Source: a virus
Lineage: Duplodnaviria; Caudoviricetes
Strand: one strand, 5' to 3'
IMG/VR virus record: IMGVR_UViG_3300035182_002389
Coordinates: 138,519-202,518 of that record
DNA length: 64,000 nucleotides
The translations under genes and the position numbers were made by a program. The notes beneath the pieces were generated by a model. That model did no database searches and was not told the origin of the DNA. It was given only the letters and a program-made list of their open reading frames with translations. Shown here piece by piece: positions 1-64,000 of this stretch. The stretch's first letter is position 1; the number at the start of each line of letters is the position of its first letter.

Positions 1-156
1 ACCAAGCGCCCCGACGGCACAACCTACGAAAAGGTCGACGAAGACGGCCTGCTCTCTTCGCCCCTCGTGCGCGCTTTGCGTCAGTTCCAGGCGGATTACA
101 ACCTGCCCGTGACCGGCCGACTCGATCTTTTGACGCTCAACGCGGTACAATGCTGA
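1..156 (+). CDS. 3' end of peptidoglycan-binding domain protein (5' truncated)
   Basis: Frame 1 reads ...DGLLSSPLVRALRQFQADYNLPVTGRLDLLTLNAVQC*, a PG_binding_1-type motif. Confidence 0.75.
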   Translation, partial: TKRPDGTTYEKVDEDGLLSSPLVRALRQFQADYNLPVTGRLDLLTLNAVQC

Positions 157-202
157 GCGCTGCGGCGACGAGCCGAAACGCACCCTGATCTGGAGCTACA
201 CC

Positions 203-1192
203 ATGGGCCCTCTTCCTATCATTCTCGGCGGCGGCGCTGTGCTCCTTGCGCTCGCGTTCGGCAAGAAGTCCTCGGTTGCGTCGCTGACCAGCAACCCTCA
301 GCCGACCCCCTACACGCCGCCGAACATCCTCCCGCCGGGGCCCACGCCGCCGAAGCCAGTCCCTCCCCAGGATTTGCCCATGGGCACTTCCGGCGGCGCG
401 AGCAAGGCCGAGATCACCTGCTTGCAGACGCAGCTCAGCATGCTCCGGTCGCCCGACGGCGCCGGATACAACACGGGCGGCATCGACGGCGTCTGGACGA
501 GCGGAACGTCCTCCGCGCTCGCGAAGTTCCAGAAAGATGCCGGCCTGCCGGTCACCGGAAGCATCGACGCGGCGACCCGATCGGCCGAAGCCTTCGCCAT
601 GTGCTTCTCGGCCAGCGCGCCGCAGCCTTCGAGCGGCCCCGACATGACCGGCGGCGCCACCGCGTACCAAATCCGCTGCCTCCAAAGCGCTCTGAACAAC
701 CGCTACAACGATCAGAACGTCAAGGAAGACGGTCTCTGGTCAAGCGCGCTCGGCACCGTCGTCTCTCGCGCGCAAACCGACGCGGGGCAGGCCGTCACCG
801 GCCGCATCACCCCCGAGCTGCTCGCGCAAGCCGGATGCTCTGCTGCCGCGCCGACCGTGTATCCGTCGACCTTCGGCGACACCATCGCGTGCGACGTCAA
901 CGGCAACATGCCTGACGCGAAGAAGACGGCGGACCTCAAGGCCGCCATCAACGCGTCGACCAGCGAAGCCGACCTCAACGAGTTCGCGAACTTCTGCCTC
1001 TCGCTCGACAAGCCCTGCACGGGTCTGCACGACTACGCGCTCGCCCGCATCGTCGGGATGCGCGAGAACAAGACCACCGAGCAAGTCCTGCAAGAGCAGC
1101 ACGACGCCGCCGTCGCTGCCGCGCAACAAGCGGGAGGCGTCGTCAAGGACGCTGCTGGCAACGTCATCGACACCTTCAAGAACATGTTCTGA
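203..1192 (+). CDS. Membrane-anchored protein with Pro-rich linker and two PG-binding domains
   Basis: N-terminal helix IILGGGAVLLALAFGKK; CLQTQL..GGIDGVW..SALAKFQKDAGLPVTGSID and CLQSAL..EDGLW..AQTDAGQAVTGRIT. Confidence 0.8.
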   Translation: MGPLPIILGGGAVLLALAFGKKSSVASLTSNPQPTPYTPPNILPPGPTPPKPVPPQDLPMGTSGGASKAEITCLQTQLSMLRSPDGAGYNTGGIDGVWTSGTSSALAKFQKDAGLPVTGSIDAATRSAEAFAMCFSASAPQPSSGPDMTGGATAYQIRCLQSALNNRYNDQNVKEDGLWSSALGTVVSRAQTDAGQAVTGRITPELLAQAGCSAAAPTVYPSTFGDTIACDVNGNMPDAKKTADLKAAINASTSEADLNEFANFCLSLDKPCTGLHDYALARIVGMRENKTTEQVLQEQHDAAVAAAQQAGGVVKDAAGNVIDTFKNMF

Positions 1193-1205
1193 TCGGGAGA
1201 GTGAA

Positions 1206-1433
1206 ATGCGAGTCTCGATCGGAAATCGTGTCGCCCTCGACGTGCAGACCGGCAAGGAGGGCGAGACCCTCCTGCTCCTGCTCACGGTTCAAACCCCGTG
1301 GGGCCCCATCTCCAACGCGACGAGCGTGAGCGCGCAGACGCTTCGCGCCATGCTTGTGTGGCTCCGCTCGAACTACGGCACGCTCGCGTACGATTTCGTT
1401 GCCGCGCGCAGCGGCCTGCTCCGTCGCCGCTGA
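1206..1433 (+). CDS. Hypothetical protein (75 aa)
   Basis: Fills gap between co-oriented genes; GGGAG upstream. Confidence 0.6.
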   Translation: MRVSIGNRVALDVQTGKEGETLLLLLTVQTPWGPISNATSVSAQTLRAMLVWLRSNYGTLAYDFVAARSGLLRRR

Positions 1434-1445
1434 ACCAACATTCCC

Positions 1446-1460
1446 GGCTTACCGCAAGCC
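1446..1460. promoter_or_regulatory. Palindromic operator copy 1, GGCTT-ACCGC-AAGCC
   Basis: Intergenic, 21 nt before ATG 1482. Confidence 0.75.
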
Positions 1461-1481
1461 TTCATCCAAGAAAGCACGATC

Positions 1482-2126
1482 ATGTCGCACACCCGTGAAG
1501 AAGTTCTGACCCGCGCGATGGACGTCAACGCGCAGATGCAGGAAGTCGGCAAACTCGCCTTCTCGCTCTGCTTCGACCTTCAAGGGGCGGTCGCTACGGG
1601 CATGGCAGCCATCGCCAACATGAGCCCGACGCTCACCGAGGTCGCCGCCGTTCAGGCCTCGTTGCTCGGCGACATGATCCCGCAAATCGCCGTCAGCGTT
1701 CGGCGATGCAAGTCGCTGAACACGGTTCAGGCCGGCGGCGACGCCGCTTTCGTCTCGAAGTTCACGTCGCTGCTCGCGCGCTGGAAGCTCTTCACCCGCC
1801 GCATCCAGGTGTTCAACCTCTTCGGCCAAGGTCCCGACAGCGCGTGGGACACCGTCGGCGTCTACGAGAACATCCTCGCGAAGTATCGCCAGGAAGTGCA
1901 GCTCCTCGCGCCGACGACCGTGGCCAACATCGTCGAGCAGGAGGCGACGCCTCCGAACGTCCTGCCCGAGCCCGTCGACGCGAGCGCGGCTCCTTCGACC
2001 CAGATCGTCGCAGGCGCCGCAGGCGCAAGTGTGCCGGTCGCCGGCACGCCGTGGGCTCTCATCGGCGGCGCGGCCATCGGCGGCGCAGCGCTCACCTATC
2101 TGCTGACGAAGCGTTCGTCCCGATAG
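1482..2126 (+). CDS. C-terminally anchored membrane protein, paralog 1 of tandem triplet
   Basis: HTREEV.., FTRRIQVFNLFGQGPDSAW motif; C-terminal WALIGGAAIGGAALTYLLTKR. Confidence 0.8.
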   Translation: MSHTREEVLTRAMDVNAQMQEVGKLAFSLCFDLQGAVATGMAAIANMSPTLTEVAAVQASLLGDMIPQIAVSVRRCKSLNTVQAGGDAAFVSKFTSLLARWKLFTRRIQVFNLFGQGPDSAWDTVGVYENILAKYRQEVQLLAPTTVANIVEQEATPPNVLPEPVDASAAPSTQIVAGAAGASVPVAGTPWALIGGAAIGGAALTYLLTKRSSR

Positions 2127-2166
2127 GCGACCGAAACCTCGACCCTTCACGCGAAAGAACAAGACC

Positions 2167-2883
2167 ATGCCTTTGCTCGACACCCACTCGCGTGAAGAGG
2201 TCCGCGCCAAAGCGGCGAACGTCGACGCCTCGATGAAGGAGTTCGAGAAGATCGTCCTCTCGCGGATGGCCTTCGACCCGAGCGCCATCGGTTCGGCGGT
2301 CAATGCCGCGCTCGCTCCCGACGCTCCCAACGCCGGCGAGTCCGCCAGCATCCTCGCTGCCAACCTCTCCGATACGGCGCCGTACATCGGCCCCTCCGTT
2401 CAACGCCGCGCCACCATCAGCGCTGCCCAGGCGACCAAGGAGACCGACTTCGCCACGAAGTTCATGGCCTTCTACGCGCGATGGAGCCTCTTCTACAAGC
2501 GCATCCAAGGGTTCGATCTCTTCGGGCCGTCCCCCGACGCCGCGTGGAAGATCGTGACCGACTACGAGACGAACCTCGGCACCTACAAGCAGGAAGCCGC
2601 GCAGATCATGGCCGCGTCGGCCGCTACGCCCGGCCCTGTGTTCGGGCCGCCCATCAACCCGACTCCGGTCGTTCCCGGCCAACCTGCACTGCCGGGGCAG
2701 CCTGCGACGCCCGCGCTCCCCGGGGCAGGGCCCGCCCTGTCCTCGGGCATCCCGTCGTGGCTCCTCATCGGCGGCGTGGCTGTCGGCGGCGTCCTGCTCG
2801 CCCACTACCTGACCAAGTCGAAGGGGCCGACCAGCGGCCAGTCCCTGCCTTCCGCGAGCTTCGCGAGCTACCGAGGCCGGTAG
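2167..2883 (+). CDS. C-terminally anchored membrane protein, paralog 2 of triplet
   Basis: HSREEV.., FYKRIQGFDLFGPSPDAAW; TM WLLIGGVAVGGVLLAHYLTK. Confidence 0.8.
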   Translation: MPLLDTHSREEVRAKAANVDASMKEFEKIVLSRMAFDPSAIGSAVNAALAPDAPNAGESASILAANLSDTAPYIGPSVQRRATISAAQATKETDFATKFMAFYARWSLFYKRIQGFDLFGPSPDAAWKIVTDYETNLGTYKQEAAQIMAASAATPGPVFGPPINPTPVVPGQPALPGQPATPALPGAGPALSSGIPSWLLIGGVAVGGVLLAHYLTKSKGPTSGQSLPSASFASYRGR

Positions 2884-2927
2884 CCCGAACTTCGCCACCG
2901 AACCTTTCGAGCCCTTCGAGGAGACCC

Positions 2928-3662
2928 ATGGCCGACTATCAGAACGCGCTCTTCAACACCCACGAACGCGGAGAGGTGAGGGCGCGAGCGTCGACCGTCG
3001 ATGCGGCGATCTCGACCTACAATCGAGACCTGCTCGCGCAGATCGCGTTCGATGCGGCCGACGTCGGAACGAACCTCTCAAAGTACCTCACGAACGATCT
3101 CGGCGCGTCCGACGGCGAAGCTTCGCTCATCGTGGAAGAGAGCGTCGCCGTCGCCGCTCCCTTCCTCGTGCACGCAGGACAGCGCGTCGCCATCGTCCCG
3201 GTCGACACCGCACAGAGCGAGAAGACCTTCTACCAGGGATGGTCGAAGTTCTACGGCAAGTGGAAGCTCTTCTTCACGCGCATCCAAAGCTTCAGCCTGC
3301 TCGGCCCGTCCCCCGACGACGCCTGGAACATGCTCATGCAGTTCGAGACCGATTTTGCCGCGTGGAAGAAGCAGGGCGAGACCCTGCTCCACGTCAAATC
3401 GACGGCCCCCGACGTTCCCGCTCTCCCGCAGCCGGATCCGGGCGCCGTCGAGAAGTTCGGCTCCTCCGTCGAGTCGGTCGCGAAGACGGTCCTGCTCTAC
3501 GGCGCGCTCGCGGGCGGCGGGTTCCTTCTCTACAAGTACCTCTCCTCGCGTGTCGAGGAGCGCAACATCGGCCTTGGCGAACGACGCGCTGGCGGCTCCA
3601 TGGGCGGCTCGATGATCGGGTCTGCCGAGCCCTACGGCTACCTTCCTTCAGGCCGGCGCTGA
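2928..3662 (+). CDS. C-terminally anchored membrane protein, paralog 3 of triplet
   Basis: GAGGAG RBS before ATG 2928; HERGEV.., FFTRIQSFSLLGPSPDDAW; TM VLLYGALAGGGFLLYKY. Confidence 0.8.
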   Translation: MADYQNALFNTHERGEVRARASTVDAAISTYNRDLLAQIAFDAADVGTNLSKYLTNDLGASDGEASLIVEESVAVAAPFLVHAGQRVAIVPVDTAQSEKTFYQGWSKFYGKWKLFFTRIQSFSLLGPSPDDAWNMLMQFETDFAAWKKQGETLLHVKSTAPDVPALPQPDPGAVEKFGSSVESVAKTVLLYGALAGGGFLLYKYLSSRVEERNIGLGERRAGGSMGGSMIGSAEPYGYLPSGRR

Positions 3663-3696: not shown

Positions 3697-3732
3697 GGGA
3701 ACGGGAACGGGAACGGGAACGGGAACGGGAAC
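3697..3732 (+). repeat. (GGGAAC)6 microsatellite
   Basis: Six perfect copies ending 7 nt before ATG 3740. Confidence 0.95.
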
Positions 3733-3739
3733 GGACAAG

Positions 3740-6133: not shown

Positions 6134-6721
6134 ATGAGTTCCAAGCTCCCGTACATCCTCGGCGGCGCCGCGGTCCTCGGCATCGGCTACTTCCTCTACA
6201 AGAAGAGCCAGACGCCTACCGCAACCGGAGCAAAGAGCACCGCGGGAACGCCGCAGGGATCTGCTGGCACGCCGCAGGGAGCCGCCGGAACACCGCAAGG
6301 GCCTGCCGCTCCAGAGCCGACAAGACCGATTCTCGTGAGGAGCCCGGGGCCGCTCAACACGAACGCCATTCGTCTTCGCCCGGAACTCTTCGCGACGCAG
6401 CCCGAGCCGGCGCCTCAGCCGGAGCCCCAGCCCAAGCCAGAGCCGGAGCCACAGCCCAAGCCAGAGCCGGAGCCTCAGCCCCAAGAGCCGGTCGACACCG
6501 CCGATCTGGACGCGTGCTCTCAGGCCGTGGAAGACATCTCCAACAGCACCCTGCGGATGGCGGTCAAAGCCGGAATTTCTCAGGCTGCCAAACTTGGCGG
6601 TCCCAAGGGAGCTTCGGAGCTTCAGACGGCGATCTCCGCGCTTCGGATGGCCGCGTTCCTCGACGACTCCATGACCGACATCGCAGACTGCTTGCAAGCG
6701 GCGGCCGACAAGATGAAGTAA
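6134..6721 (+). CDS. N-anchored membrane protein with GTPQG and EPQP/EPEP repeats
   Basis: YILGGAAVLGIGYFLYKK; Pro/Glu/Gln stalk at ~6398-6490; helical C-terminal domain with 2 Cys. Confidence 0.8.
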   Translation: MSSKLPYILGGAAVLGIGYFLYKKSQTPTATGAKSTAGTPQGSAGTPQGAAGTPQGPAAPEPTRPILVRSPGPLNTNAIRLRPELFATQPEPAPQPEPQPKPEPEPQPKPEPEPQPQEPVDTADLDACSQAVEDISNSTLRMAVKAGISQAAKLGGPKGASELQTAISALRMAAFLDDSMTDIADCLQAAADKMK

Positions 6722-7346: not shown

Positions 7347-7418
7347 TGGGACGTAGCCAAGTTGGTAAGGCAGGGGATTTTGATTCCCCCACCGCGGGTT
7401 CAAGTCCCGCCGTCTCTA
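7347..7418 (+). tRNA. trnQ: tRNA-Gln (anticodon TTG), CCA not encoded
   Basis: D arm AGCCAAGTTGGTAAGGC, anticodon stem GGGGA/TCCCC with TTG at 7380-7382, T arm GCGGG-TTCAAGT-CCCGC, acceptor TGGGACG/CGTCTCT. Confidence 0.92.
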
Positions 7419-7431
7419 CTGCCGCCGAGGC

Positions 7432-7943: not shown

Positions 7944-9098
7944 ATGAATCTCGACCAAAAGCTTCGCGTCCTCGTTGCTGGGGATTCCATCGTCGCGGGC
8001 TATCCGACGACCTCCGGGTTTCGCAAGAAGCTGCGCGAGTCGCTGCCGGAGAGCGTCGTCGAGTTCGTGGGGCCGAACGTCGACGCGGCCGGGCTCAGGC
8101 ACGGCGGCTATCATGGGCACCCATCAAAGAGCCTCGTCAAAAAGCTCCCAGAGCTGCTCGCTGATCGCCCCGACATCGCCATCATCATGGTGGGGGGCAA
8201 CGGCATCCCCGATACGACCCCCGAGGACGTGGGCCAAGAGGTTTCAGCCCTCGCCAAAGGTCTCGTCGACGGAGGCGTGCGCGTCGTCTACGTCTCGAAG
8301 ATTGCCGACGTCTCCCTCTTCAGCGAGCACGTGCGCGCCTACAACGAGCAGATCGCGCTTCAGTGCCTGCTGCCGAACGTGCACGTCATCGACATTGGCG
8401 GCGCAGTCGGTCCTGCCGATCGTGGATCGCCGTACTACGCTGACGACTGCCATCCGAACGAACTCGGATACGATCGCATGGCCGACGTTCCGCTCGCTCA
8501 GGTTTTCGGGCAAACCCCGCAGCCCATCACACGCGTTGGCGCGAGCGGTGAAAGCCCGACCTCACTCCTTCAGAGAGCCGACCAAGAACTGAAGTCTGCG
8601 TACCCCGAGATGACCTCGGAGATGCGCGCCGTCTTCATCAAGTCGTGCCACGAAATCACAGGCCTCGGCCAGTCGGGCGATTGGGCTCCGTTCGGTGTCG
8701 CGTCCAACAACGTCGGCGCCATCGTCTATCGCCCAGGCCACGACGCGACCTACTTCATGGGCCGCGACGGCGTGAAGTACGCGAAATACCCGACGCTCAA
8801 GGAAGGCCTTATCGCCGCTGTCGAAGCTTACGAGCACATCATCTCGCCCGACGTGCCCGAGCGACCGTCCTTTCGCCGTCCGGTGCTCACGCGCCCCTAC
8901 CCGGAAGCGACGGCGAACTTCAACCTGCACGGCGGCAAGCCCATCCTCCGCATCAGCGTTCGAGGTTCCTCGGACGCAGAGCCCACCGGCAACCCCTTCT
9001 CCTACGCCAACCTCGGCGTTCTCGTCATCGCAGGCGCCCTGTTCGCGGGCACGCTCGCGCTTCGACCCGGGCACAACGCGCCTCCGAGCCACCGATGA
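7944..9098 (+). CDS. SGNH/GDSL esterase fused to GH73-like glucosaminidase domain, C-terminal TM
   Basis: AGDS, VGGNG, DDCHP SGNH blocks; then HEITGLGQS..SNNVGAI..YAKYPTLKEG; TM LGVLVIAGALFAGTLALR. Confidence 0.7.
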   Translation: MNLDQKLRVLVAGDSIVAGYPTTSGFRKKLRESLPESVVEFVGPNVDAAGLRHGGYHGHPSKSLVKKLPELLADRPDIAIIMVGGNGIPDTTPEDVGQEVSALAKGLVDGGVRVVYVSKIADVSLFSEHVRAYNEQIALQCLLPNVHVIDIGGAVGPADRGSPYYADDCHPNELGYDRMADVPLAQVFGQTPQPITRVGASGESPTSLLQRADQELKSAYPEMTSEMRAVFIKSCHEITGLGQSGDWAPFGVASNNVGAIVYRPGHDATYFMGRDGVKYAKYPTLKEGLIAAVEAYEHIISPDVPERPSFRRPVLTRPYPEATANFNLHGGKPILRISVRGSSDAEPTGNPFSYANLGVLVIAGALFAGTLALRPGHNAPPSHR

Positions 9099-9415
9099 GC
9101 ACTGAGAGCTTGCGCGAGGTCTTCGCACGCGTGAAGCGCGAGAAAGCCGAACGCGAAGCGATCGTTCAAGCGTTCATCGCTCAGATCGGCGAGAGGCCCT
9201 TCTCCGTCGTCGTTCCTGCCCACGGCATATTTACGGACGACGTCACCTTCTACGTTCACCGGGACACACACGAGAAGTATCTCGGGCAGTGGCGCGTCAC
9301 TCGCTTCATCAACGGCGAGCCTTGGGGCCACTACACCCACGCATCCTACGCCGACGTGCTCCGTCAGGTTGTCGGCGAGTATCACGCCGATCTGCACAAA
9401 GCCAAACTGCGCTGA
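9095..9415 (+). CDS. Hypothetical protein (106 aa)
   Basis: ATGA overlap with upstream gene; GC3-biased codons. Confidence 0.65.
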   Translation: MSTESLREVFARVKREKAEREAIVQAFIAQIGERPFSVVVPAHGIFTDDVTFYVHRDTHEKYLGQWRVTRFINGEPWGHYTHASYADVLRQVVGEYHADLHKAKLR

Positions 9416-9501
9416 CATCTCCAACGAGCATGGAGATTTGACGGAGGCGTCTCTACGATGACCTCCGCCACGAGATTTCAACCAAGAACGAGAGAAACAC
9501 C

Positions 9502-10281
9502 ATGCACGACCCGAAGTCCCTTCTGCACGACCCGAGCCTCCTCCGACTCGGCAAGAAGGCCGTCCGCCACGACGACCGCACCCTGCAACTCGTCAAGTAT
9601 CTCGGCGCGGCCCTTCCGCCGGCTCCCGCGAGCCTCGTCTGGTCGACGAAGACCGACAACAAGTGGCCGATGTTCCTCAACGACTCGCTCGGCGACTGCA
9701 CGTGCGCCGCGGCCGGCCACATGGAGCAGCTCTGGAGCGCCGCCGGGATCAAGAACGAGATCACTGTCGCCGACGCCGACGTGCTCGCGATGTACGAAGG
9801 CGCTGCCGGGTACAACCCGAAGGATCCGTCGACCGATCAGGGAGCCGTCGAGCTGGACGTCCTGAAGTTCTGGCAGAAGACCGGCCTCGCGGGGCGCAAG
9901 ATCGGCCCGTACGCCTCGGTTTCGGTGCAGAGCAAGACCATCACGAAGGACGGCATCTACCTCTTCGGCGGCATCTACACCGGGTTCGCGCTGCCCGTCA
10001 GCGCGCAGTCGCAGGCCGTGTGGGACGTTCCCGCCCGCGGCGCCGTCGGACGCGGCGCGCCCGGGAGCTGGGGCGGCCACGCCGTGCCCGTCATCGACTA
10101 CGACACGCGCGGCCTCACGTGCGTGACCTGGGGTACGCTGAAGCGCATGACCTGGGCCTTCTACCAGACCTACTGCGACGAGGCGTACGCCATCCTCAGC
10201 CCGGACTTCCTGTCCGCCGGCAAGTCCCCCGCCGGGTTCGACGCGGCGACGCTCGCGGCCGACCTCGCGAAGCTTCACTGA
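9502..10281 (+). CDS. Papain-like (C1-type) cysteine peptidase
   Basis: NDSLGDCTCAAAGH catalytic Cys region; SWGGHAVPVIDYD catalytic His; VTWG. Confidence 0.8.
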   Translation: MHDPKSLLHDPSLLRLGKKAVRHDDRTLQLVKYLGAALPPAPASLVWSTKTDNKWPMFLNDSLGDCTCAAAGHMEQLWSAAGIKNEITVADADVLAMYEGAAGYNPKDPSTDQGAVELDVLKFWQKTGLAGRKIGPYASVSVQSKTITKDGIYLFGGIYTGFALPVSAQSQAVWDVPARGAVGRGAPGSWGGHAVPVIDYDTRGLTCVTWGTLKRMTWAFYQTYCDEAYAILSPDFLSAGKSPAGFDAATLAADLAKLH

Positions 10282-11768: not shown

Positions 11769-12347
11769 TCAAGGCGCATTGCGACGCGCCTCGAACGTAA
11801 TCAGGAGCTTGTCGAGCAGATCCTTCATGCGCTTGCGAAGGGCCCCTTCCTTGACGCCGAAGATGACCGCGATCTCCTTGTATTCGAGGCCATCGTCGAG
11901 ACGTAGGGTCAAGAGGTTGCGAGCGTCGTCGCTCAGCTCGCTCGCGATCTCACGGAGAAGCGCCACGTCGCGATGATGTTGAAGTCCCGTCCCCGGGCCT
12001 GCGAGGCTTCCGATCCAACGCTCGCTCGCGACGCCGGAGGTCGGCAAGGTGCGCCGACGCGCTCTCTTCGCCGACTCCGCCGAGTCGAGCGCCTTGTGAC
12101 GAGCGATGCCGCACAGCCACGAGTGCATCGTGCTCTGCCCCGCAAAACCGCCGATCTTTTCGGACGCCGCCGCGAACGTCACTTGCGCCACATCTCGGGC
12201 GCGCTGGTCGTCGCGCACGTAGCGCATCGCGAAGCGGACGATGCTCTTGTAGTAATGGCGGGCGGCAAGGTTCAACGCGCGATGTCGATCGCCCGCCTGA
12301 AGCGCCTGCCGAATCTGAGCCTCGACGGCCGCGATGTCTTCCGCCAT
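11769..12347 (-). CDS. ECF-family RNA polymerase sigma factor
   Basis: Region 2 (ARDVAQVTF..SWLCGIARHKALD) and region 4 (LSDDARNLLTLRLDDGLEYKEIAVIFGVKEGALRKR). Confidence 0.9.
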   Translation of the reverse strand: MAEDIAAVEAQIRQALQAGDRHRALNLAARHYYKSIVRFAMRYVRDDQRARDVAQVTFAAASEKIGGFAGQSTMHSWLCGIARHKALDSAESAKRARRRTLPTSGVASERWIGSLAGPGTGLQHHRDVALLREIASELSDDARNLLTLRLDDGLEYKEIAVIFGVKEGALRKRMKDLLDKLLITFEARRNAP

Positions 12348-14332: not shown

Positions 14333-15055
14333 ATGGCGCAGAAGCAGTGGATCAATCTGCCGACCGGGCAGGTGCTCGTCGACGGCGTCGCCGTCACGCC
14401 CACCGATCCGCTACGCATCAAGCAGATTCAAAACGACGTCATCGAAAAGTGGGGCGTCGTATTCGCAAAGGCGGCAATCAAGACTGGCGTGCCGTGGTGC
14501 TGGCTCATCGGGTTCTGCGCGTCGGAGAGCTATCCTGTCGGCGATCCGAACAGCCTCTCTGGCATGGGCGCCATCGGGCTCATGCAGCTTTTGCCGAGCA
14601 ACTTTGCAAAATTCATGGGGCGCCCCGTGAGCCGCGCGGAGATGTTCAGCCCCGAGATCAACGCGTTCGTCGGCGCCTCCTTCATCGCGGACCTTCGCAA
14701 GCACAACGGCAACGATCTGGTCGCGACCGCCTCGATGTACAACGCGTGGATCGATCACAGCGACAAGTCGGGCCTCTACTACCCGAAGACGTGTGCCAAC
14801 CATCCGTGTTCAGACACGAGCTGGGGCCCCACGCCGAACGAGGCGATGTACGCGGAAGACAGCTACATCGAGAAGGTCGTGACCGCGACCAACTTCGCCT
14901 ACCCGCAGACGGCGCGGTTCATCGCCCAAGCTCAGACCGAAATCCAAACGTCCTCCACGGGACGCACACTCGCCATCGGCGCAGGATCGCTCCTGATCTG
15001 CGCCGGCGGCTATTTCGCCTACAAGCAATACGCCGCGAGGAAGAAGAACGCATGA
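14333..15055 (+). CDS. Lytic transglycosylase (SLT/GH23) with C-terminal membrane anchor
   Basis: ASES catalytic Glu, GAIGLMQL, PEINAFVGA, SMYNA; TM LAIGAGSLLICAGGYFAYK. Confidence 0.85.
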   Translation: MAQKQWINLPTGQVLVDGVAVTPTDPLRIKQIQNDVIEKWGVVFAKAAIKTGVPWCWLIGFCASESYPVGDPNSLSGMGAIGLMQLLPSNFAKFMGRPVSRAEMFSPEINAFVGASFIADLRKHNGNDLVATASMYNAWIDHSDKSGLYYPKTCANHPCSDTSWGPTPNEAMYAEDSYIEKVVTATNFAYPQTARFIAQAQTEIQTSSTGRTLAIGAGSLLICAGGYFAYKQYAARKKNA

Positions 15056-15462: not shown

Positions 15463-15467
15463 AGATC

Positions 15468-16079: not shown

Positions 16080-16097
16080 ACCCGCGGGAGTTCGCTC

Positions 16098-16706: not shown

Positions 16707-16708
16707 AC

Positions 16709-17107: not shown

Positions 17108-17122
17108 GCTTCTGCTTGCACC

Positions 17123-17137
17123 GGCTTGTCGCAAGCC
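17123..17137. promoter_or_regulatory. Palindromic operator GGCTT-GTCGC-AAGCC
   Basis: Intergenic, 22 nt before ATG 17160. Confidence 0.75.
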
Positions 17138-17159
17138 AACCAGTAAAGGAAACCACACC

Positions 17160-50256: not shown

Positions 50257-50543
50257 TCTGCGGCGGTTGCGGGCGCGAGTACCGAGGCGTGTCGAGCCGT
50301 AGCGGCACGCCGCGGTGCCCGTACTGCGACAAGCCGTACGGACAAGCGGCAACCGGCGCGACGAGGGTCGCCCCCGTCATCACCGCAGATCAGCGCGTCG
50401 TATTCCTGCCGAACCCGCTGAAGGACCGCCCGTTCTACCTCAAGCGCATCTACGACGCACCCACCAGCGACTCACCGATGGGTCCGATCGATCAGCAGAC
50501 CACCGCGCAGATTCGCGCGAGGATCATCGGACAGAAAGGGTAG
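50253..50543 (+). CDS. Zn-ribbon protein sharing its finger with 48808
   Basis: ATGA overlap; CGGCGREYRGVSSRSGTPRCPYC. Confidence 0.7.
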   Translation: MICGGCGREYRGVSSRSGTPRCPYCDKPYGQAATGATRVAPVITADQRVVFLPNPLKDRPFYLKRIYDAPTSDSPMGPIDQQTTAQIRARIIGQKG

Positions 50544-52950: not shown

Positions 52951-53376
52951 ATGCCCTGCCCCAACCCGAGCTGCCCGTACGCAAACGACCCAAGCCACTT
53001 CTGCCCATGCTCCTCGGCTGCTGTCGGTAGGGGCGGCGGGGGAGGGGGCGGAGGACATGGAGGCGGCGGAGGAGGCCATGGAGGCGGCGGAGGCGGCGGA
53101 GGCCACGGCGGCGGAGGGCATGGCGGAGGTGGAGGCCGCGGGTGGGGCGGCGGAGGGTGGGGAAACTACGGGCTGAGGCCCAGGCCGCACGGGTACTACG
53201 GCTGGTACGCAAACGGATACTGGTGGCCGGGCTGGTGGGACTACCCGAACGAGCTGAACGATACGAGCAGCCTCCTCGCACTCGCCAGAGCCTTGCAGAA
53301 CGGCGCCATCACAGGCGCGCAGGTGCGAGCCATGGGGATCAGCCCCAACGCCCTCATCGCCATCCTCAGCCCGTAG
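52951..53376 (+). CDS. Cys-rich leader, Gly/His-rich and Trp/Tyr-rich protein
   Basis: MPCPNPSC..AAVG, GHGGGGG repeats, YYGWYANGYWWPGWW, C-terminal ALQNGAITGAQVRAMGISP. Confidence 0.7.
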   Translation: MPCPNPSCPYANDPSHFCPCSSAAVGRGGGGGGGGHGGGGGGHGGGGGGGGHGGGGHGGGGGRGWGGGGWGNYGLRPRPHGYYGWYANGYWWPGWWDYPNELNDTSSLLALARALQNGAITGAQVRAMGISPNALIAILSP

Positions 53377-53418: not shown

Positions 53419-53868
53419 ATGATCCTCTTCTCATACGGCTCCAATCACCCGGCCCAGCTCGCTGAAAGGCTTGGCCGCGCCATCAAGAGGACATGGCCGG
53501 CATTTTTGCCGGGACACGAACGAGTGTTTCGAGGGCGGTCCGTGCGGTGGAACGGAGGCGTCGCGAGCCTCAAAGCACATCCGAAGGCCACGACCTACGG
53601 GTACGCCGCCGAAGTCAACCGCGCAGACATCGAAAAGCTCGACGTTTACGAAGGGATTGCCCAAGGCAAGTACAAGCGCGTCGAACTGCCCATCGTCATC
53701 GAGGTGCACGGCGCTCACAAGGAGACGCTCGCATCGCTCTACGTCAGCACCAGCGAAGAGTTCAACGCGCCGAGCAGGGAATACCTCGACGCCGTGGCGA
53801 AGACCATCGCGTCTTTCTGGGTCGGATCTAAGGGTACGATCACGCGCAAAGACATCCCCATCCGCTGA
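53419..53868 (+). CDS. Gamma-glutamylcyclotransferase (GGCT/AIG2-like) family protein
   Basis: LFSYGSN, GVASL, KLDVYEG, YKRV, PSREYL. Confidence 0.85.
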   Translation: MILFSYGSNHPAQLAERLGRAIKRTWPAFLPGHERVFRGRSVRWNGGVASLKAHPKATTYGYAAEVNRADIEKLDVYEGIAQGKYKRVELPIVIEVHGAHKETLASLYVSTSEEFNAPSREYLDAVAKTIASFWVGSKGTITRKDIPIR

Positions 53869-54435: not shown

Positions 54436-55119
54436 ATGAACAACACGTCGCGCGAGTGGGTCATCACCTTCCAAAAAGGAGCCAAGAGCGAGCCGGTCCA
54501 GCTCGTTCGATTGTCTGCCACGAGCGCCGACATCGCGAAGAAGACGTTCCTGTCGCTCGTCCCTCATGCGAAGGTCTACAACGTAGGTCTCGGCATCGGC
54601 GACGAGAGGATTCCACGCATCGACCAGATCCTCGACGCTTCGGAGCTTTCCTCCGCGGCGAAGAAGAACACGCCCCGGAGAAGCACCATGCCCAAGGCAA
54701 AGAAGGCCGCGAAGAAGAGCACGAAGAAGGCCGCGAAGAAGAGCGCGAAGAAGCGCCCGGCCAAGAAGCACGTGGCCAAGAAGGTCGCCAAGAAGCACAC
54801 GGCGAAGAAGCACACGGCGAAGAAGACCGCCAAGAAGCGTGCACCGAAGAAGGCTGCCAAGAAGCGTGCGCCGAAGAAGGCCGCCAAGAAGCACGCGCCG
54901 AAGAAGGCCGCCAAGAAGCACGCGCCGAAGAAGGCCGCCAAGAAGCACGCGCCGAAGAAGGCCGCCAAGAAGACCGCCAAGAAGTCGGCGAAGAAGTCGC
55001 CGGCCGATCGCGTCGCACGCCGCAAAAAGTGGAACGCGTTCCAGAAGTCGCACGCGGGCAAGGGCCTCACCAAGAAGCAGCTCGGCGAGAAGTTCAAGAA
55101 GGCCCACCCGGAGAAGTGA
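54436..55119 (+). CDS. Histone H1-like protein 4 with N-terminal globular domain; second in-frame start at 54688
   Basis: GAGGA RBS; KKAAKK repeats; GGAG 7 nt before internal ATG (MPKAKKAAKK). Confidence 0.8.
   Translation: MNNTSREWVITFQKGAKSEPVQLVRLSATSADIAKKTFLSLVPHAKVYNVGLGIGDERIPRIDQILDASELSSAAKKNTPRRSTMPKAKKAAKKSTKKAAKKSAKKRPAKKHVAKKVAKKHTAKKHTAKKTAKKRAPKKAAKKRAPKKAAKKHAPKKAAKKHAPKKAAKKHAPKKAAKKTAKKSAKKSPADRVARRKKWNAFQKSHAGKGLTKKQLGEKFKKAHPEK
54844..54972 (+). repeat. Five 27-bp units encoding PKKAAKK(R/H)A
   Basis: Units start 54844, 54871, 54898, 54925, 54952. Confidence 0.9.
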
Positions 55120-55939: not shown

Positions 55940-56293
55940 ATGAGCGCATGCACGCACAGTCTCCGGGTTCGTAAGAACCGATTCGGACGCGGCATCTACG
56001 CGAAGCGCGACTACGCGCGGGGAGAGACCATCGAGGTCTCCCCCGCGGTCATCGTCAAGAAACGCGACATTCGCGACGACGATCGCCTCGCCGACTACGC
56101 GTTCGAGTGGGCGCGCGGAAAGTACGCCATCGCGCTCGGCTACGGATCGCTCTTCAACCACTCCGAAGAACACCAGAACGCCACGTGGCGCAATGATCTC
56201 GCCCACAACCGCCTCGTCTTCTACGCCATCCGGCCGATCAAGAGAGGGCAGGAAATCTTCACGAACTACGGGTACGACCCGGCGAGACGCTGA
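55940..56293 (+). CDS. Minimal SET-domain lysine methyltransferase
   Basis: GRGIYAKRD..GETIE; GYGSLFNHS; AIRPIKRGQEIFTNYG. Confidence 0.9.
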   Translation: MSACTHSLRVRKNRFGRGIYAKRDYARGETIEVSPAVIVKKRDIRDDDRLADYAFEWARGKYAIALGYGSLFNHSEEHQNATWRNDLAHNRLVFYAIRPIKRGQEIFTNYGYDPARR

Positions 56294-57153: not shown

Positions 57154-58281
57154 TCAACGAATCGACGACGAAGGACGTGAAAGGAAATACGCCACGGCCG
57201 CACCGGCGAGCATTGCTCCGCCGGCCATGAGGACCTTCGTCGACGTCGATGTCGAGGCTCCACCGCCGGCATCCATGACGAAAGGTTCGGGGTCAGGGCC
57301 CTGCACGTAGTCTGTGCGACCTTCGACGCCCGGCGGGTTTGACGCCGGATCGGGGATCGCCACGCCGTCGGAACCCGTCACGTAGCTCACTCTCTTCGCT
57401 CCGCTCGTCCCCGACATGGGAGGGGGCATCAGCGTCTTCTTCGACCCGTTGTTGAGCACCGGCAGAGCGTTCGTTCCCGCGTTGGGGAACCGAGGGTTGA
57501 ACGGCCCGTCGTCCGAAACGAGCACGTGCAGCTTCGGATGCAAGCACACCTCGTCGAACGAAAACGGAACGCCGTTGACCGACACCTGCCAATAGACGAG
57601 GTCGCAACCGTGCGAGTAGTCCTCGTAACCAGCTTCGTGAAATGACCAGTCCCACGGCTGGATCTGCGAGCCGTTCGGCCAAAACCAGCCACCGAACGCC
57701 ATGTTCTTGCCGTCCAGGTTCGGCCTCGTGATGTACGCCTTCTTCGTTCGCGTGAACGCGCTGTAGTTCGCGCCGAAGATGACGCCGGCCTTCGCGAGAG
57801 CTTCGTTGACCCGCTCGTTCTCTTTCGCAATGACCGACGTTGCGAGCCCAGGATGGCAAATGCCGAGAGGATTCTTCTCGGTCTTCTCACAGGGCCTGGA
57901 GAGGGCCTGCGGATCGATTTTGAACGACGTCGACTGCCACGTGTTCTTCACGATCTTCTTCGACGGAATGTAGAACTTCGAGGTTCGGTCCGTTGGATCT
58001 GAAGCGCTCACGAGCATTCGAGCGTCGCAAAACGATTGCAGACTTGGCTGTATGAGCGGCCATCGAACGAAGTCCTCGTTCGTGCCGATCGACAAGTAGT
58101 CGGGCGGCGTTAGGTACGTCAGCTCGTAGTCACCTCCGTCGATGACCGCAGACGTTCGGCACGTCTGAAGATGCTCCATGAACTCCGGCGTATTGCCGGC
58201 GAGCATCGTGGAGAGCGCAAGCGCATCGCGCTTCGGATCGCTCATGTCCCAGACAAGCTTCAGGAACTCGGAGCCCTTCAT
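57154..58281 (-). CDS. Membrane-anchored HxxxYxDYSHGC protein, paralog of 21859
   Basis: MLAGNTPE, YLSIGTNED, KKAYIT, HEAGYEDYSHGCD, VCLHPKLHVLVSD; TM LMAGGAMLAGAAVAYFLSR; TG-G-TAGGCT 7 nt upstream. Confidence 0.8.
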   Translation of the reverse strand: MKGSEFLKLVWDMSDPKRDALALSTMLAGNTPEFMEHLQTCRTSAVIDGGDYELTYLTPPDYLSIGTNEDFVRWPLIQPSLQSFCDARMLVSASDPTDRTSKFYIPSKKIVKNTWQSTSFKIDPQALSRPCEKTEKNPLGICHPGLATSVIAKENERVNEALAKAGVIFGANYSAFTRTKKAYITRPNLDGKNMAFGGWFWPNGSQIQPWDWSFHEAGYEDYSHGCDLVYWQVSVNGVPFSFDEVCLHPKLHVLVSDDGPFNPRFPNAGTNALPVLNNGSKKTLMPPPMSGTSGAKRVSYVTGSDGVAIPDPASNPPGVEGRTDYVQGPDPEPFVMDAGGGASTSTSTKVLMAGGAMLAGAAVAYFLSRPSSSIR

Positions 58282-59031: not shown

Positions 59032-59619
59032 ATGACGAAAGTAGCCCTACTGGCCCTCGTGCCCTACATCCTCGTTGCCGGCACCCCCGCGAAGACGACG
59101 ATGAAACTGCCCGAGGACAGCCCTACCATGCAGCGAGCCGGAACCCGCGCCGAGGAGACCATCTCCGTCGTCGAGGCCATGGTCGCGGACCCCGTCGAGC
59201 GCGACATCTGGGAGCGCTCTCTCTTCGGCTGGGAGTATTGGGAGGCGTCTTGGCAAACGTCCCCGAAGGGCTGGAACGACGCTGGCACGGCCTGCGGCGT
59301 TCTTCAGGTCCACGCCCCCGAAAAGATCATCCCGGGCACCACGTGCGAGATGATGCGCAAGGACTCGAAGCTCGCCATCCGCGTCGCATTGACCTTTCTC
59401 CTGGAACGAGAGAAGACCTGCGGAAGTAAAGCGGCGGCGTGGACCGCCTTTTCGTGGGACGGCGGTTGCCACGACTTCTCCCTCGACCTCGTGAAGTTTC
59501 GCTGCCGATCGGTCGGGCTCACCACCTCGTGCGAATCGAAGAAAGCCGCCCTGCCCGCATCGACATCCGCCGTACCGACCACCGTCAAACCGGCCCCGAC
59601 AGCGAGCGTCAAGCCGTAG
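59032..59619 (+). CDS. Secreted lysozyme-like / lytic-transglycosylase-like protein
   Basis: N-terminal signal VALLALVPYILVAG; WEAS..NDAGTACGVLQVH; several Cys. Confidence 0.55.
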   Translation: MTKVALLALVPYILVAGTPAKTTMKLPEDSPTMQRAGTRAEETISVVEAMVADPVERDIWERSLFGWEYWEASWQTSPKGWNDAGTACGVLQVHAPEKIIPGTTCEMMRKDSKLAIRVALTFLLEREKTCGSKAAAWTAFSWDGGCHDFSLDLVKFRCRSVGLTTSCESKKAALPASTSAVPTTVKPAPTASVKP

Positions 59620-60020: not shown

Positions 60021-60069
60021 ACAGACGCGCGTACACTTGCCGGCAGACGTCTACACCGAGGAACAGCTC

Positions 60070-60624
60070 ATGCCCTTCTGCCCATCTTGCGGTAAGAATC
60101 ACGCCGCCGTTGGCGCTCTCGTCGGGGCGAACCCGTACCGCTCCAACGTGCAGAAGCTCCACACCGTCATGCAGCAGGTCATGCACCGAGCCAGCATCGG
60201 CGATCCCGGGACTCTCAGCGTCACACTGGCAAAGGCTCTCCCCCTCGCCAACGGCGGTCGCGGCAAGACGCAGAACGTGCAAGCGCTCGGCCCGCTCAAC
60301 CTCGTCGGGCTCCACATTGGAACCGCTGAAGGCGTGGCTAGTGGGCTCAAGGTCACGAGGGTCCAGATCGGCCGACACGACATCCTTCCAATGGATCAGT
60401 CGGGCCGACTCATCGACCCGAATCCTGCCAAGAAGAACGCCTTCGGCAACCAACCGATCATCGCCGGATGGGACATTGGCCAGACGATCCCGCTCGACCC
60501 TCAAGGGCTGATGTGGAAGGCCTCCACGCCCAGCGACTACGCCTACCAAGATCAGGTGCTCTGGATCACGTTCTGGAATCGGTCAGGACAAACGGTCACG
60601 CCAAACGGCATCGCCATCTACTGA
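60070..60624 (+). CDS. CxxC/VGA-leader protein with all-beta domain; candidate single-jelly-roll capsid-type protein
   Basis: MPFCPSC..AAVGALVGA; alternating beta-strand pattern (LSVTL, LNLVGLHI, LKVTRVQIG, LWITFWN); fold unverified. Confidence 0.4.
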   Translation: MPFCPSCGKNHAAVGALVGANPYRSNVQKLHTVMQQVMHRASIGDPGTLSVTLAKALPLANGGRGKTQNVQALGPLNLVGLHIGTAEGVASGLKVTRVQIGRHDILPMDQSGRLIDPNPAKKNAFGNQPIIAGWDIGQTIPLDPQGLMWKASTPSDYAYQDQVLWITFWNRSGQTVTPNGIAIY

Positions 60625-62399: not shown

Positions 62400-62668
62400 T
62401 TCCTCTTGCGCCCTTTCTTGCGCGCCTTACGGGCCGACTTGGCCCGAACCCGTTCTTCCGGGTCCGCATCGCCGTGACCAAACTGAGCGCGAAGCCACAC
62501 CTCTCTTCGTTCAAAGGCCAACTCGGCCGCCGACTTGTGAGAAGTGTTCTTCGGAGAAGAAGGAAAGTTGTCATACGTCGCCGTCGCGGTCCAAACCTCG
62601 ATAACCTGTGGGGTCTGCGGCGTGATCGCGCCGTAAGGCAAAATCGTGTAGTCCCAGATTCGGTTCAC
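62396..62668 (-). CDS. Hypothetical protein with basic tail (90 aa)
   Basis: Coupled in leftward operon. Confidence 0.55.
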   Translation of the reverse strand: MNRIWDYTILPYGAITPQTPQVIEVWTATATYDNFPSSPKNTSHKSAAELAFERREVWLRAQFGHGDADPEERVRAKSARKARKKGRKRK

Positions 62669-62671
62669 GAC

Positions 62672-62950
62672 CTACCACCGTTTCTTCGCGAGCCATTCCG
62701 GGAAAAGCTGCTCGATTCGGCCCAAGACTCGAACACGCATCTCCAACTCGTCCGACAACAGGCCGTCGCGACGATTGCCGCGCATCGTCAAAATCCCACG
62801 ACGCCCATTCAGCTCGATCTCGTCACGAACCATTCGCAACACCACGTCCTTGCGCGTCGGGAGCGAGAGGCCGCTCCCGACGAGCAAGTAGGTGACGAGA
62901 TCGACAACATCGTCCGTCGTAAGACGATGTCGGATCTGCACCGTCAGCAT
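62672..62950 (-). CDS. Hypothetical protein (92 aa)
   Basis: GGAG upstream; leftward operon. Confidence 0.6.
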   Translation of the reverse strand: MLTVQIRHRLTTDDVVDLVTYLLVGSGLSLPTRKDVVLRMVRDEIELNGRRGILTMRGNRRDGLLSDELEMRVRVLGRIEQLFPEWLAKKRW

Positions 62951-62955
62951 GGCCG

Positions 62956-63699
62956 CTACGAACGCTCCGCGATCGCCTTGAAGAGACGCTTCACGAGCTT
63001 CTGCTGCGCGAAGAGGACCTTGAGGAGCTTCTCATCGAAGTTGATGCTGCTCGGAATCGGGGGCAGATCGATGATCTCGCTCTCCGCTTCCGGCCGAGCC
63101 CCGCCGCAAGACCCGCCTCCGTCACAAGCTCCGCCGCAGCCGGGCTGAACGACGCGAGACGTCTCCTCCGAGACCTTCGCCTGAGCGTCGGCGAGCGATC
63201 CGTGCTCCTTGAGCAGCTCGGTCACGGTCGCCGGAATCTGCTCGTACAGGCGAGCCTCCAGACCGAGCAGTCCGCCGATCTCCGACAGCAACGACTCGAA
63301 GTGATCGGAGCTTTTCGTCTCGTCCTTCAAGTGCTCCACGACTTCGGCCACTCGTTCCGGGAGCGCCATCACGGTCGCGTAGTCGGGCGTCAAGCCGAGT
63401 GCAGACGCGATCCGATCGAGAGCATTGCGGAACTTCAGCTCGGCGATCGTGCAGCGAACATCCCCCTCCACCATGTAGATGACCGCGTAGGCCTTGACGC
63501 CTTCGCCCTTGCTCACCGTGTCGACCGTCTCCTCCGCCTCGGCGCGCGTCGCGTACTTCACGATGCGCCCCATCTGCTCGACGGGGCTCCCGTTCGCTCG
63601 GCACACTGCCCACGCCACCGGCACCCGAAGCGCATCGCGATCTCCGATCGAACCACGCGGCTCGCTCGCCGACTCCGCGTCCGTCTTGTCGCTCTCCAT
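62956..63699 (-). CDS. Coiled-coil hypothetical protein (upstream TTG at 63765 possible)
   Basis: GGAGGG RBS before ATG 63699; repeated LGL..Y..xPxxVxEL segments. Confidence 0.65.
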   Translation of the reverse strand: MESDKTDAESASEPRGSIGDRDALRVPVAWAVCRANGSPVEQMGRIVKYATRAEAEETVDTVSKGEGVKAYAVIYMVEGDVRCTIAELKFRNALDRIASALGLTPDYATVMALPERVAEVVEHLKDETKSSDHFESLLSEIGGLLGLEARLYEQIPATVTELLKEHGSLADAQAKVSEETSRVVQPGCGGACDGGGSCGGARPEAESEIIDLPPIPSSINFDEKLLKVLFAQQKLVKRLFKAIAERS

Positions 63700-63717
63700 C
63701 TCGCCCTCCGCTGCCAG

Positions 63718-63732
63718 AACTTGCCGTAAGCC
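63718..63732. promoter_or_regulatory. Near-match operator AACTT-GCCGT-AAGCC in leader of leftward operon
   Basis: One mismatch to consensus. Confidence 0.45.
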
Positions 63733-63795
63733 GAACCGCAAGACCTTTCCCGCAATCCGCGCCAACGAACCATAAGAACTCGCCCTAGAAAGGAA

Positions 63796-63833
63796 ACCAT
63801 ATCAACAAAGACGGTTCGTGTCAACATTGACAC
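63796..63833 (-). promoter_or_regulatory. Sigma70-type promoter TTGACA-17-TATGGT, with -35 inside palindrome GTGTCAA-CA-TTGACAC
   Basis: -35 at 63824-63819, -10 at 63801-63796, exact 17-bp spacer; palindrome 63818-63833. Confidence 0.75.
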
Positions 63834-64000
63834 GACCGCTGAACGGAAGGGCAGATGAACCGCGAGCCGTCGGAGGCAGCCACCCCCACCGCCGCCCCAT
63901 CCTTATCCCCCATCGTCTCCCCCTCGACCTCCTCGCCAGGTCCAGCATCCCCGCCAACATCCGGTCCAGGCAGCCCTTGTCGCGATCGTGGTGAGGCCGA

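Follow-up and report, generated by a model that had tools for sequence, protein, structure and literature searches.

A jumbo virus of 65% G+C with a tectivirus-type polymerase, many anchored proteins, and no recognizable morphogenesis gene in 239 kb

Among the described viruses closest to the one analyzed here are the Tectiviridae (PRD1, Bam35, and AP50), the Autolykiviridae, and Methanosarcina spherical virus (MetSV), which share with it the closest protein-primed polymerase, many small membrane proteins, and a membrane-anchored transglycosylase. To our knowledge, membrane-containing or protein-primed bacterial viruses are all small (under 20 to 50 kb), and all jumbo bacterial viruses are tailed. 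We analyzed a stretch of 64,000 nucleotides (the window) that forms the right end, bases 138,519 to 202,518, of a single IMG/VR virus record (IMGVR_UViG_3300035182_002389; 202,518 bp, 65% G+C), which is classed there as "linear" with a CheckV completeness estimate of 94%. The window represents the late arm, transcribed rightward, of a jumbo virus whose double-stranded DNA genome measures at least 240 to 250 kb. Compared with the Tectiviridae and Autolykiviridae, this genome is 15 to 25 times larger, has no detectable double jelly-roll capsid protein or A32-type ATPase and no demonstrated inverted terminal repeat (ITR), carries a polymerase open reading frame (ORF) interrupted by a hairpin, and encodes receptor-binding modules of the tailed-phage type. 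The combination of at least 240 kb, a tectivirus-type polymerase, about 65 stereotyped membrane anchors, six H1-like proteins, and no recognizable morphogenesis gene in 239 kb leaves two outcomes of interest. Either tailless lineages extend by an order of magnitude, which matters for virus evolution, or the head and tail genes of a jumbo tailed lineage of Myxococcota are invisible to current profiles or systematically separated by assembly, which shows how metagenomic virus classification fails. Positions below are those of the window unless marked as genome positions, which count along the record.

Extension of the genome and search for head, packaging, and tail genes

The virus DNA is present in sediment and microbial-mat metagenomes, and the record was extended through exact-protein look-ups in other assemblies, whose overlapping contigs were identical where compared by BLAST. 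The poly-C run that opens the record (genome 1 to 23) is an artifact located at a GC-rich hairpin repeat, which other assemblies read before continuing leftwards, with a gain of 34,862 bp; a JGI contig of 199,543 bp reaches about 38.8 kb to the left of the record start, as judged from its size and matched range. On the right side, four assemblies run 1,374 to 1,725 bp beyond the window and stop within 350 bp of each other. The sequence beyond the last window gene is richer in A+T and almost noncoding, with one gene of 190 amino acids (aa), and the longest extension begins 5'-CCCCC. The extended sequence comprises 238,754 bp, and the overall extent from other assemblies is at least 239 to 243 kb. 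No repeat is common to both ends of the 238,754-bp sequence, in which the left genome end was not reached. Gene order is conserved in a true relative, and there are records of larger relatives, of 112.9 and 160.8 kb.

PHROG and Pfam scans covered window ORFs of at least 80 aa. Outside the window, PHROG scans covered all proteins of at least 160 aa of the other 138.5 kb and the larger proteins of the 35-kb extension, many of which were also scanned with Pfam, and eight hidden Markov models (HMMs) were searched in six frames against the 202.5-kb contig, a method that detected terminases in other phage records. The window ORFs include no terminase, portal, HK97 capsid, sheath, tube, or baseplate family, which confirms what a first, sequence-only reading of the 64 kb had reported. 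A large terminase was found neither with the six-frame models PF03237 (Terminase_6N) and PF03354 (TerL_ATPase) nor in the PHROG scans, and no TerL-like Walker A motif was seen. Likewise, the six-frame searches gave no portal (PF04860) and no HK97-fold capsid (PF05065, with no capsid PHROG either), a diverged form of which could lie among the ORFs that were not folded. On the side of the Varidnaviria, the same contig gave no FtsK-HerA (A32-like) packaging ATPase with PF04665 (Pox_A32) or PF01580 (FtsK_SpoIIIE), the enzyme that the sequence-only reading had proposed to look for, and no match to the capsid HMMs of PRD1 P3 and of nucleocytoplasmic large DNA viruses (NCLDV); no double jelly-roll capsid was detected. 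That reading had also named terminase, portal, capsid, and tail genes in adjacent sequence as the evidence that would overturn it; none was found, and the 138.5 kb upstream, the 34.9 kb further left, and the 1.7 kb on the right held no morphogenesis gene. We file the virus in neither Caudoviricetes nor Varidnaviria, since defining features of both were searched for and not found.

Several candidates for the missing functions were rejected. A match to the "portal" family phrog_15528 is the NUDIX domain of g312, and the family also matches in all 14 control genomes. Proteins with a Walker A motif comprise, genome-wide, only a UvrD-like helicase, an ABC/SMC-type ATPase, RadA, and a vWA protein, with no packaging candidate among them, and a protein with an RGEGKT motif (e261), considered as a split terminase, has unrelated small proteins as neighbors. 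A terminase-encoding sequence of 54.9 kb from the same sample (G026), considered as the missing part, has 4 proteins in common with the virus, 56% G+C, and none of the 15-bp dyads described below, and is a different phage. A complete genome of 202 kb (G006), considered as a relative, has only 8 proteins in common.

In the assembly-graph tables of two samples, the 30-bp word at 63874 to 63903 is a branch point with two left contexts and one right continuation. In the first sample a 10,017-bp contig joins there at a depth of 22.3 (versus 19.3 for the window's contig), and in the second a 7,921-bp contig joins at 23.1 (versus 21.2). The 30-base flank of the joining contig is absent from the 238.8-kb extended sequence, and exact DNA words in the IMG/VR and JGI collections gave no match for the left end or the branch contig. 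An ITR of about 1.8 kb would fit the topology, but the depth of the shared piece is not doubled, and we do not claim one. The genome is incomplete, and DNA of equal depth exists outside the known 239 kb; it would therefore be premature to take the missing head and tail genes as a sign of a tailless virus.

A 15-bp dyad, G[GA]CTT-N5-AAG[CT]C, can serve as a signature when the missing DNA is binned. It has 62 sites in 238.8 kb (26 per 100 kb), versus 0 to 0.5 per 100 kb in two phages with a comparable G+C content. Its window sites lie at 1446, 6098, 7432, 10351, 17123, 18778, 20662, 26032, 29440, 32618, 45498, 48159, 50663, 53386, 53997, 55612, 58585, and 60006. GC skew was not used as a clue to replication or to the missing DNA. 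Irrespective of gene orientation, the left 150 kb have a skew of about 0. Near genome 115,000 the skew falls to about -0.09, with values of -0.05 to -0.11 across the right 85 kb, to which the entire window belongs, and it tracks late proteins rich in Pro, Ala, and Thr.

We give about an even chance to a tailed jumbo phage in which the genes for head, packaging, and tail would lie in the unjoined DNA or have diverged beyond recognition by HMMs. This reading is favored because of prior odds, the tail-type receptor modules, the lack of a packaging ATPase of either kind, and the unjoined DNA; with neither kind of packaging ATPase present, a missing morphogenesis module is the simplest explanation. 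The late arm begins with a probable envelope attack and lysis block with Gly-rich anchors at about 0 to 23 kb (peptidoglycan [PG]-binding repeats, SLT, GH25-like muramidase, SGNH esterases, and a papain-like peptidase). An adsorption block at about 29 to 44 kb supplies a collagen/ConA fiber, a Gly-rich fiber, two tandem-lectin binders, and a spike docking via its N-terminal adaptor, and the stretch between the two blocks encodes DNA-condensing H1-like proteins along with a RadA-type recombination helicase.

Exchangeable cassettes in the adsorption block

The fiber/spike block spans 31113 to 44185, about 13 kb where the sequence-only reading had put 15 kb, and its genes described here are on the plus strand. 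It opens with a collagen-like fiber with a ConA-like head (g303), an adaptor-B protein (g304), and a Gly-rich fiber (g306) at 31113 to 35703, which were recognized by matches to Collagen (E value, 6e-33), Laminin_G_3, and tail-fiber PHROGs. A paralogue of g306, a 905-aa protein, is encoded at genome 89065 to 91782.

A receptor-binding cassette follows at 36268 to 39819, consisting of g308 and the tandem ConA-like lectin proteins g309 and g310 (36781 to 39819). More than 380 full-length homologues with lengths of about 475 aa make up the g309/g310 family, which is absent from Pfam and has no member encoded in any of 50,697 deposited phage genomes. Structure prediction covered two proteins, the g309/g310 type and g311. 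For the former, an AlphaFold (AF2) model built from an 89-sequence alignment has two beta-sandwiches (pLDDT, 86; pTM, 0.76), and Foldseek, at a probability of 1.0, placed the receptor-binding domain of mycobacteriophage TM4 gp23 (PDB 9n6a) on top, followed by L-type lectins and GH16, with no capsid protein in the top 50 matches. The predicted fold shows g309 and g310 to be ConA-like lectin-type receptor binders. They resemble TM4 gp23 and the ConA-like lectin/GH16 modules of siphophage tail tips in their two ConA-like beta-sandwiches but differ from TM4 gp23 in sequence (about 9% identity) and in forming a duplicated pair in a virus without a recognizable tail. A capsid role, for which uniform size, more than 380 homologues, and the two beta-sandwiches had spoken, is ruled out by the ConA-like fold, the top match to the TM4 domain, and the occurrence of the cassette in terminase-positive phages. 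The g308-g309 cassette was found in at least 80 IMG/VR contigs that are otherwise unrelated to this virus, with a terminase in 4 of the 10 tested; in a prophage, it stands after DUF2793 and "phage tail repeat" genes and before a lysozyme.

The next genes, at 39876 to 42492, are g311 (39876 to 40712), the NUDIX protein g312, g313, the papain-like g314, and the DUF1360 membrane protein g315. The predicted structure of g311 (pLDDT, 87) is an alpha/beta domain with one jelly roll. Its conservation, 43 homologues, and high coding score made it another capsid candidate, which we rejected as unproven: the jelly roll is generic, and elsewhere the gene lies between sheath and tube genes. Jelly-roll capsid proteins, which the sequence-only reading had suggested seeking among the beta-rich ORFs, were thus not recovered from the predicted structures of g309/g310 and g311. 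Atlas and ESM searches with g311 and g320 gave no informative match. About 20 IMG/VR records of 32 to 61% G+C that are unrelated in other respects also carry the g311 cassette. The closest parallels are the ENA contig GD_farmland_Scaff09493402 (202.8 kb), from an uncultured jumbo contractile-tailed phage, and IMG/VR G006 (202.1 kb, with terminal repeats), which are likewise jumbo (60 to 61% G+C) and have the g311-g313-g314 cassette at 45 to 52% identity. They differ in that their cassette stands amid recognizable sheath, tube, and baseplate genes (in the 202.8-kb contig, g311, g313, and g314 lie between the sheath and the tube/baseplate genes), with 8 proteins in common genome-wide. The tail genes of these two genomes have no counterpart detectable by BLAST here.

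The block ends with the spike g316 (42548 to 44185), whose N-terminal adaptor "EG(Y/F)NPFPG" was recognized by regular expression and sequence reading. The module of about 110 aa, "EG(Y/F)NPFPG...C.LQN", starts ten proteins, g316 and nine encoded elsewhere (genome 129536 to 133514 and 83434 to 86220), and is followed by a beta-helix, a fiber, or no C-terminal part; six copies are stand-alone, in tandem. Multi-tailspike phages (Ackermannviridae and G7C-like phages) dock several spikes via common N-terminal adaptor domains, and the ten proteins with one N-terminal module recall that system. The difference is that six of the copies have no distal domain and that the adaptor has no match in deposited phage genomes.

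The distribution of these cassettes shows that the adsorption block is built from exchangeable parts. Two adsorption cassettes that are widespread yet unannotated, and that lack both a Pfam family and a cultured representative, can now be defined: g308 with the tandem-lectin protein and g311 with g313 and the papain-like g314.

Polymerase, membrane anchors, and virion class

A protein-primed family-B DNA polymerase (pPolB; PF03175, E value of 2e-26) is encoded outside the window at genome 38725 to 40784 (L003:2725-4784). Its matches in the phage collection come only from Tectiviridae (Bam35, AP50, and GIL16), Autolykiviridae, and MetSV, at 23 to 28% identity (E values of 1e-6 to 3e-12). The frame is broken in motif B by a 65-nucleotide (nt) GC-rich hairpin (genome 39982 to 40046), and removal of the 65 nt in a script gives one frame of 686 aa with motifs B and C intact (KYLLNSLYGKFG and YCDTDS). 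The hairpin could be an inserted repeat element, a translational bypass, or a small intron.

Anchored proteins account for 33 of the 98 window ORFs by a Kyte-Doolittle threshold of 1.6 or 37 of the 98 by an uncharged 17-mer rule, close to the 35 to 40 that had been read from the sequence, versus 13 to 14% elsewhere in the genome by the same rules; both rules are crude, and the 17-mer rule gives a few false calls (e.g., g309). The excess is concentrated at 1.5 to 21.5 kb (21 of 37 genes). Genome-wide, about 65 proteins have a stereotyped single Gly-rich anchor (LLxGGxAxxGxxYLxYKK), N-terminal in about 54 and C-terminal in 11, with aromatic and Lys/Arg residues after the helix; window examples are at 203 to 1192, 6134 to 6721, 17160 to 17630, 20767 to 21336, and 22997 to 23638. 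The net charge is higher after the helix than before it in 41 of the 54 N-terminal and 9 of the 11 C-terminal anchors. Under the positive-inside rule, the N-terminal anchors would leave the bulk domain, PG-binding repeats included, on the cytoplasmic face, which is unexpected for action on the host wall from the periplasm. Anchored proteins also occur in early regions and on both strands, which weakens the argument that the anchors mark a structural module.

Two further features speak for a tailed jumbo phage, namely, auxiliary genes that are common to tailed phages of the ViI, SP-15, and Rhizobium types and the multiple spikes with one common adaptor. Several observations weigh against it. 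A contiguous 239 kb without one hallmark is extreme for a tailed phage; a tail sheath, tube, tape measure, or baseplate gave no PHROG or Pfam match; the polymerase is of the tectivirus/autolykivirus/MetSV type; and receptor-binding cassettes can move between virus classes and are no proof of a tail. In addition, the four right-hand dead ends resemble a physical DNA terminus, rather than a repeat break, because repeat breaks fall at one exact base; this suggests a linear protein-primed genome over a permuted phage genome. There is a serious minority possibility that a linear protein-primed virus of about 250 kb with tectivirus-like ancestry is truly without terminase, portal, and HK97 capsid, its particle packaged by H1-like proteins, membrane-containing, and tailless or capsid-less, with binders of the tailed-phage type on a private adaptor. 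If true, it would exceed every known prokaryotic tectivirus-like virus in size by an order of magnitude.

The sequence-only reading had proposed a Varidnaviria-like virus several times larger than known tectiviruses, and what stood of it is a virus-like, anchor-rich genome with a tectivirus-type polymerase; no Varidnaviria marker was found, the receptor-binding cassettes elsewhere lie in tail modules of phages that encode a terminase, sheath, or tube, and the genome is incomplete. In full, such a "giant tectivirus" would be a very large icosahedral virus that lacks a tail and encloses a membrane; its genome would be linear and protein-primed, its anchored proteins would reside in the virion membrane, and its fibers would sit on the vertices. 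We hold this reading to be rather unlikely. The pPolB is nearest to those of Bam35, AP50, GIL16, Autolykiviridae, and MetSV, the single anchors are stereotyped and numerous (37 of the 98 window ORFs), the C-terminally anchored SLT protein g277 recalls PRD1 P7, and the 239 kb hold no Caudoviricetes hallmark and dead-end on the right. The charge after the helix in 41 of 54 N-terminal anchors, odd for host-envelope proteins, would be natural for a virion membrane made in the cell. However, the searches gave neither an A32/FtsK-HerA ATPase nor a capsid HMM match of the PRD1 or NCLDV type, the ATPase adjoining the beta-rich paralogues g301/g302 is RadA, and those paralogues are almost unconserved. 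Neither g309/g310 nor g311 is a double jelly roll, and the e308-type beta domain is mobile and not capsid-like. The anchored proteins are spread across early and late regions and both strands, the ITR is not demonstrated (the left end was not obtained), and the polymerase gene is interrupted.

The joint failure to detect either class of packaging ATPase or either major capsid fold would also suit a virion with no capsid and no need of a terminase or A32 motor, in which six H1-like proteins condense the genome and a membrane with anchored proteins and spikes wraps it, pleomorphic or enveloped like archaeal pPolB viruses. The H1-like proteins themselves (four in the window and two upstream), the very large anchor repertoire, and an encoded phospholipase D homologue (genome 92572 to 93519) are in line with it. 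We nevertheless think it improbable: it has no bacterial precedent at such a genome size and builds on absence in an incomplete genome, the soluble N-terminal adaptor on ten spike and fiber proteins implies a proteinaceous docking structure, and the H1-like proteins may act on host DNA instead. Very improbable, finally, is a nonviral origin as a large linear plasmid or other myxobacterial element with phage-derived fibers, lysins, and secreted or anchored effectors. The lack of morphogenesis genes, the many small accessory genes, the anchored proteins with cell-wall domains, a ParB-like match, and a protein-primed polymerase as in some linear plasmids would fit such an element. It is opposed by the IMG/VR virus record, the coding density of about 90% with short co-oriented genes, the ten adaptor-bearing spikes and fibers, receptor-binding cassettes whose other occurrences are all in phage contigs, and genes for nucleotide modification and takeover of the kind that lytic jumbo phages typically carry; beyond the one ParB-like match, no conjugation or partition system was recognized.

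Genes outside the window encode RtcB, RlaP, the UvrD-like helicase, the ABC/SMC ATPase, an Mre11-like nuclease, Dam, ThyX, a dNMP kinase, SSB, a ligase, thioredoxins, HNH, FEN, more lysins, and the vWA protein. A 558-aa DUF8224/phrog_1735 protein (left extension, L017:8147-9823) and the 800-aa vWA/phrog_2426 protein (genome 8853 to 11255) are common to ViI-like, SP-15, Sundance, Rhizobium, and Vibrio phages. Thymidine hypermodification is known in several of these phages, and the two proteins suggest that the virus may modify its DNA. RtcB is 62 to 65% identical to the RtcB of metagenome-assembled genomes (MAGs) of Polyangiales/Myxococcales of 8 to 11 Mb, which strengthens the weak hint at Myxococcota given by the sequence-only reading. 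The virus marker g311 is absent from those MAGs. A Myxococcota host appears most likely, which RtcB supports and does not prove.

Lysis block, H1-like proteins, and other window genes

A codon-model gene call gave 98 ORFs in the window, 92 of them on the plus strand, at about 90% coding. The inventory of about 100 genes, a lone tRNA, four H1-like proteins, and lysins that had been read from the sequence is borne out by these ORFs, the PHROG lysin matches, four Lys/Ala-rich proteins, and a plus-strand tRNA-Gln (UUG) at 7347 to 7419, the only RNA gene found in the window (ARAGORN and Rfam). The GGGAAC microsatellite is also real (6.3 copies at 3697 to 3734; TRF).

From about 0 to 23 kb, the window forms a dense block of anchored proteins with cell-wall domains, which may represent machinery for envelope attack and lysis. 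A PHROG scan of 30 further window ORFs found several endolysin families, a lipase, and a sigma factor. The block's genes described here are on the plus strand unless stated otherwise. It starts with two N-terminally anchored proteins with PG-binding-type repeats at 1 to 1192, g250, which enters from upstream, and g251 (203 to 1192; endolysin/PG-binding PHROG), as read from sequence and PHROG matches. Three paralogues with a C-terminal Gly-rich anchor, g253 to g255 (1518 to 3662), were recognized by sequence reading and transmembrane heuristics and have no PHROG family. At 7944 to 10281 are a putative SGNH-type esterase with a C-terminal anchor (g265, from its motifs), a small ORF, and the papain-like g267 (phrog_19005, E value of 1e-37), a homologue of which is annotated as a cysteine protease in a metagenomic phage. 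The sigma-factor PHROG match within the 30-protein set, which contains g272, and sequence reading point to an extracytoplasmic function (ECF)-type sigma factor in g272 (11769 to 12347), one of the few minus-strand genes.

The lytic transglycosylase (SLT-like) g277 (14333 to 15055) has its C-terminal membrane anchor at residues 212 to 228 and matches transglycosylase/endolysin PHROGs. The stretch at 15459 to 18635 encodes an anchored SGNH lipase (g279), a fiber-adaptor-B protein (g280), an anchored PG-binding protein (g282), and a GH25-like muramidase (g283); endolysin and lipase PHROGs match in this ORF set, and the assignment to single ORFs is a probable one made by sequence reading. Four more anchored proteins, g288, g289, g290, and g291 (20767 to 23638), identified by sequence reading and the transmembrane rule, belong to no family and have no match in isolated phages. 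Among them, g290 (371 aa, C-terminal anchor) has paralogues at 57154 to 58281 and at genome 18457 to 19578. A protein at 59032 to 59619, described earlier as Cys-rich and lysozyme-like, has no lysin HMM match, and that description is unconfirmed.

On the plus strand between the lysis and adsorption blocks, g293 and g294 (24276 to 25733) are coiled-coil proteins with a common C-terminal domain and no family, which may be scaffold-like as judged from their sequences. Downstream are three Lys/Ala-rich, H1-like proteins, g296 to g298 (26082 to 28028), recognized by composition and tandem AAGAAG-type repeats, and a fourth, g333 (54436 to 55119, also plus strand; 28% Lys), was recognized in the same way. 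The four, at 26082 to 26702, 26747 to 26983, 27036 to 28028, and 54436 to 55119, contain 19 to 33% Lys and 18 to 23% Ala, and two more upstream of the window bring the number to six genome-wide.

Also on the plus strand, g300 (28319 to 29446), the only P-loop ATPase of the window, is a truncated RadA homologue. It matches RadA (PDB 5LKM) with an E value of 1e-27 as well as KaiC/AAA_25/DnaB_C and is 38 to 40% identical to RadA of phage records. Like bacterial RadA/Sms, it has an N-terminal zinc ribbon, a RecA-like ATPase with Walker A, and the KNRxG motif; it differs from bacterial RadA/Sms in ending at residue 375 without the Lon-like domain, in a Gly-rich linker, and in its place among late genes beside H1-like proteins. 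The adjoining g301 and g302 (29550 to 31110, plus strand) are beta-rich paralogues, 50% identical by alignment, with no PHROG and one homologue among 5.8 billion proteins. The arrangement had suggested a sphaerolipovirus-like block of a packaging ATPase plus two small capsid proteins, an idea rejected on the 5LKM match of g300 and the single homologue of g301/g302.

Beyond the spike, g320 (45527 to 48109, plus strand) is an 860-aa helical-repeat protein with hydrophobic segments and a C-terminal anchor, as read from its sequence, which by composition could be tape-measure-like or could be a membrane scaffold. It has no PHROG or Pfam family and has a counterpart of 868 aa in the syntenic relative.

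A family of paralogues with an MPxCPxCGxNHA leader and a C-terminal beta domain of about 100 aa (the e308 family) is encoded at genome 47628 to 51281 (minus strand), at genome 128822 to 129385, and at 60037 to 60624 in the window. The C-terminal domain occurs in 282 cluster representatives, in proteins of 100 to 420 aa. The family was considered as a single jelly-roll capsid and rejected, its profile having no PDB match and the domain being a mobile 100-aa module that is not capsid-like.

The 482-aa product of g323 (48808 to 50256) contains Cys clusters and five tandem 13-aa "DQGGGDANMPFTP" repeats (39-nt period, 90% identical). On its 3' side are a small zinc-ribbon paralogue (50253 to 50543) and a Gly/His-rich protein (52951 to 53376). 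Pfam matches also place a SET-domain protein (55940 to 56293) and a GGACT/AIG2-like protein (53542 to 53868) among the late genes.

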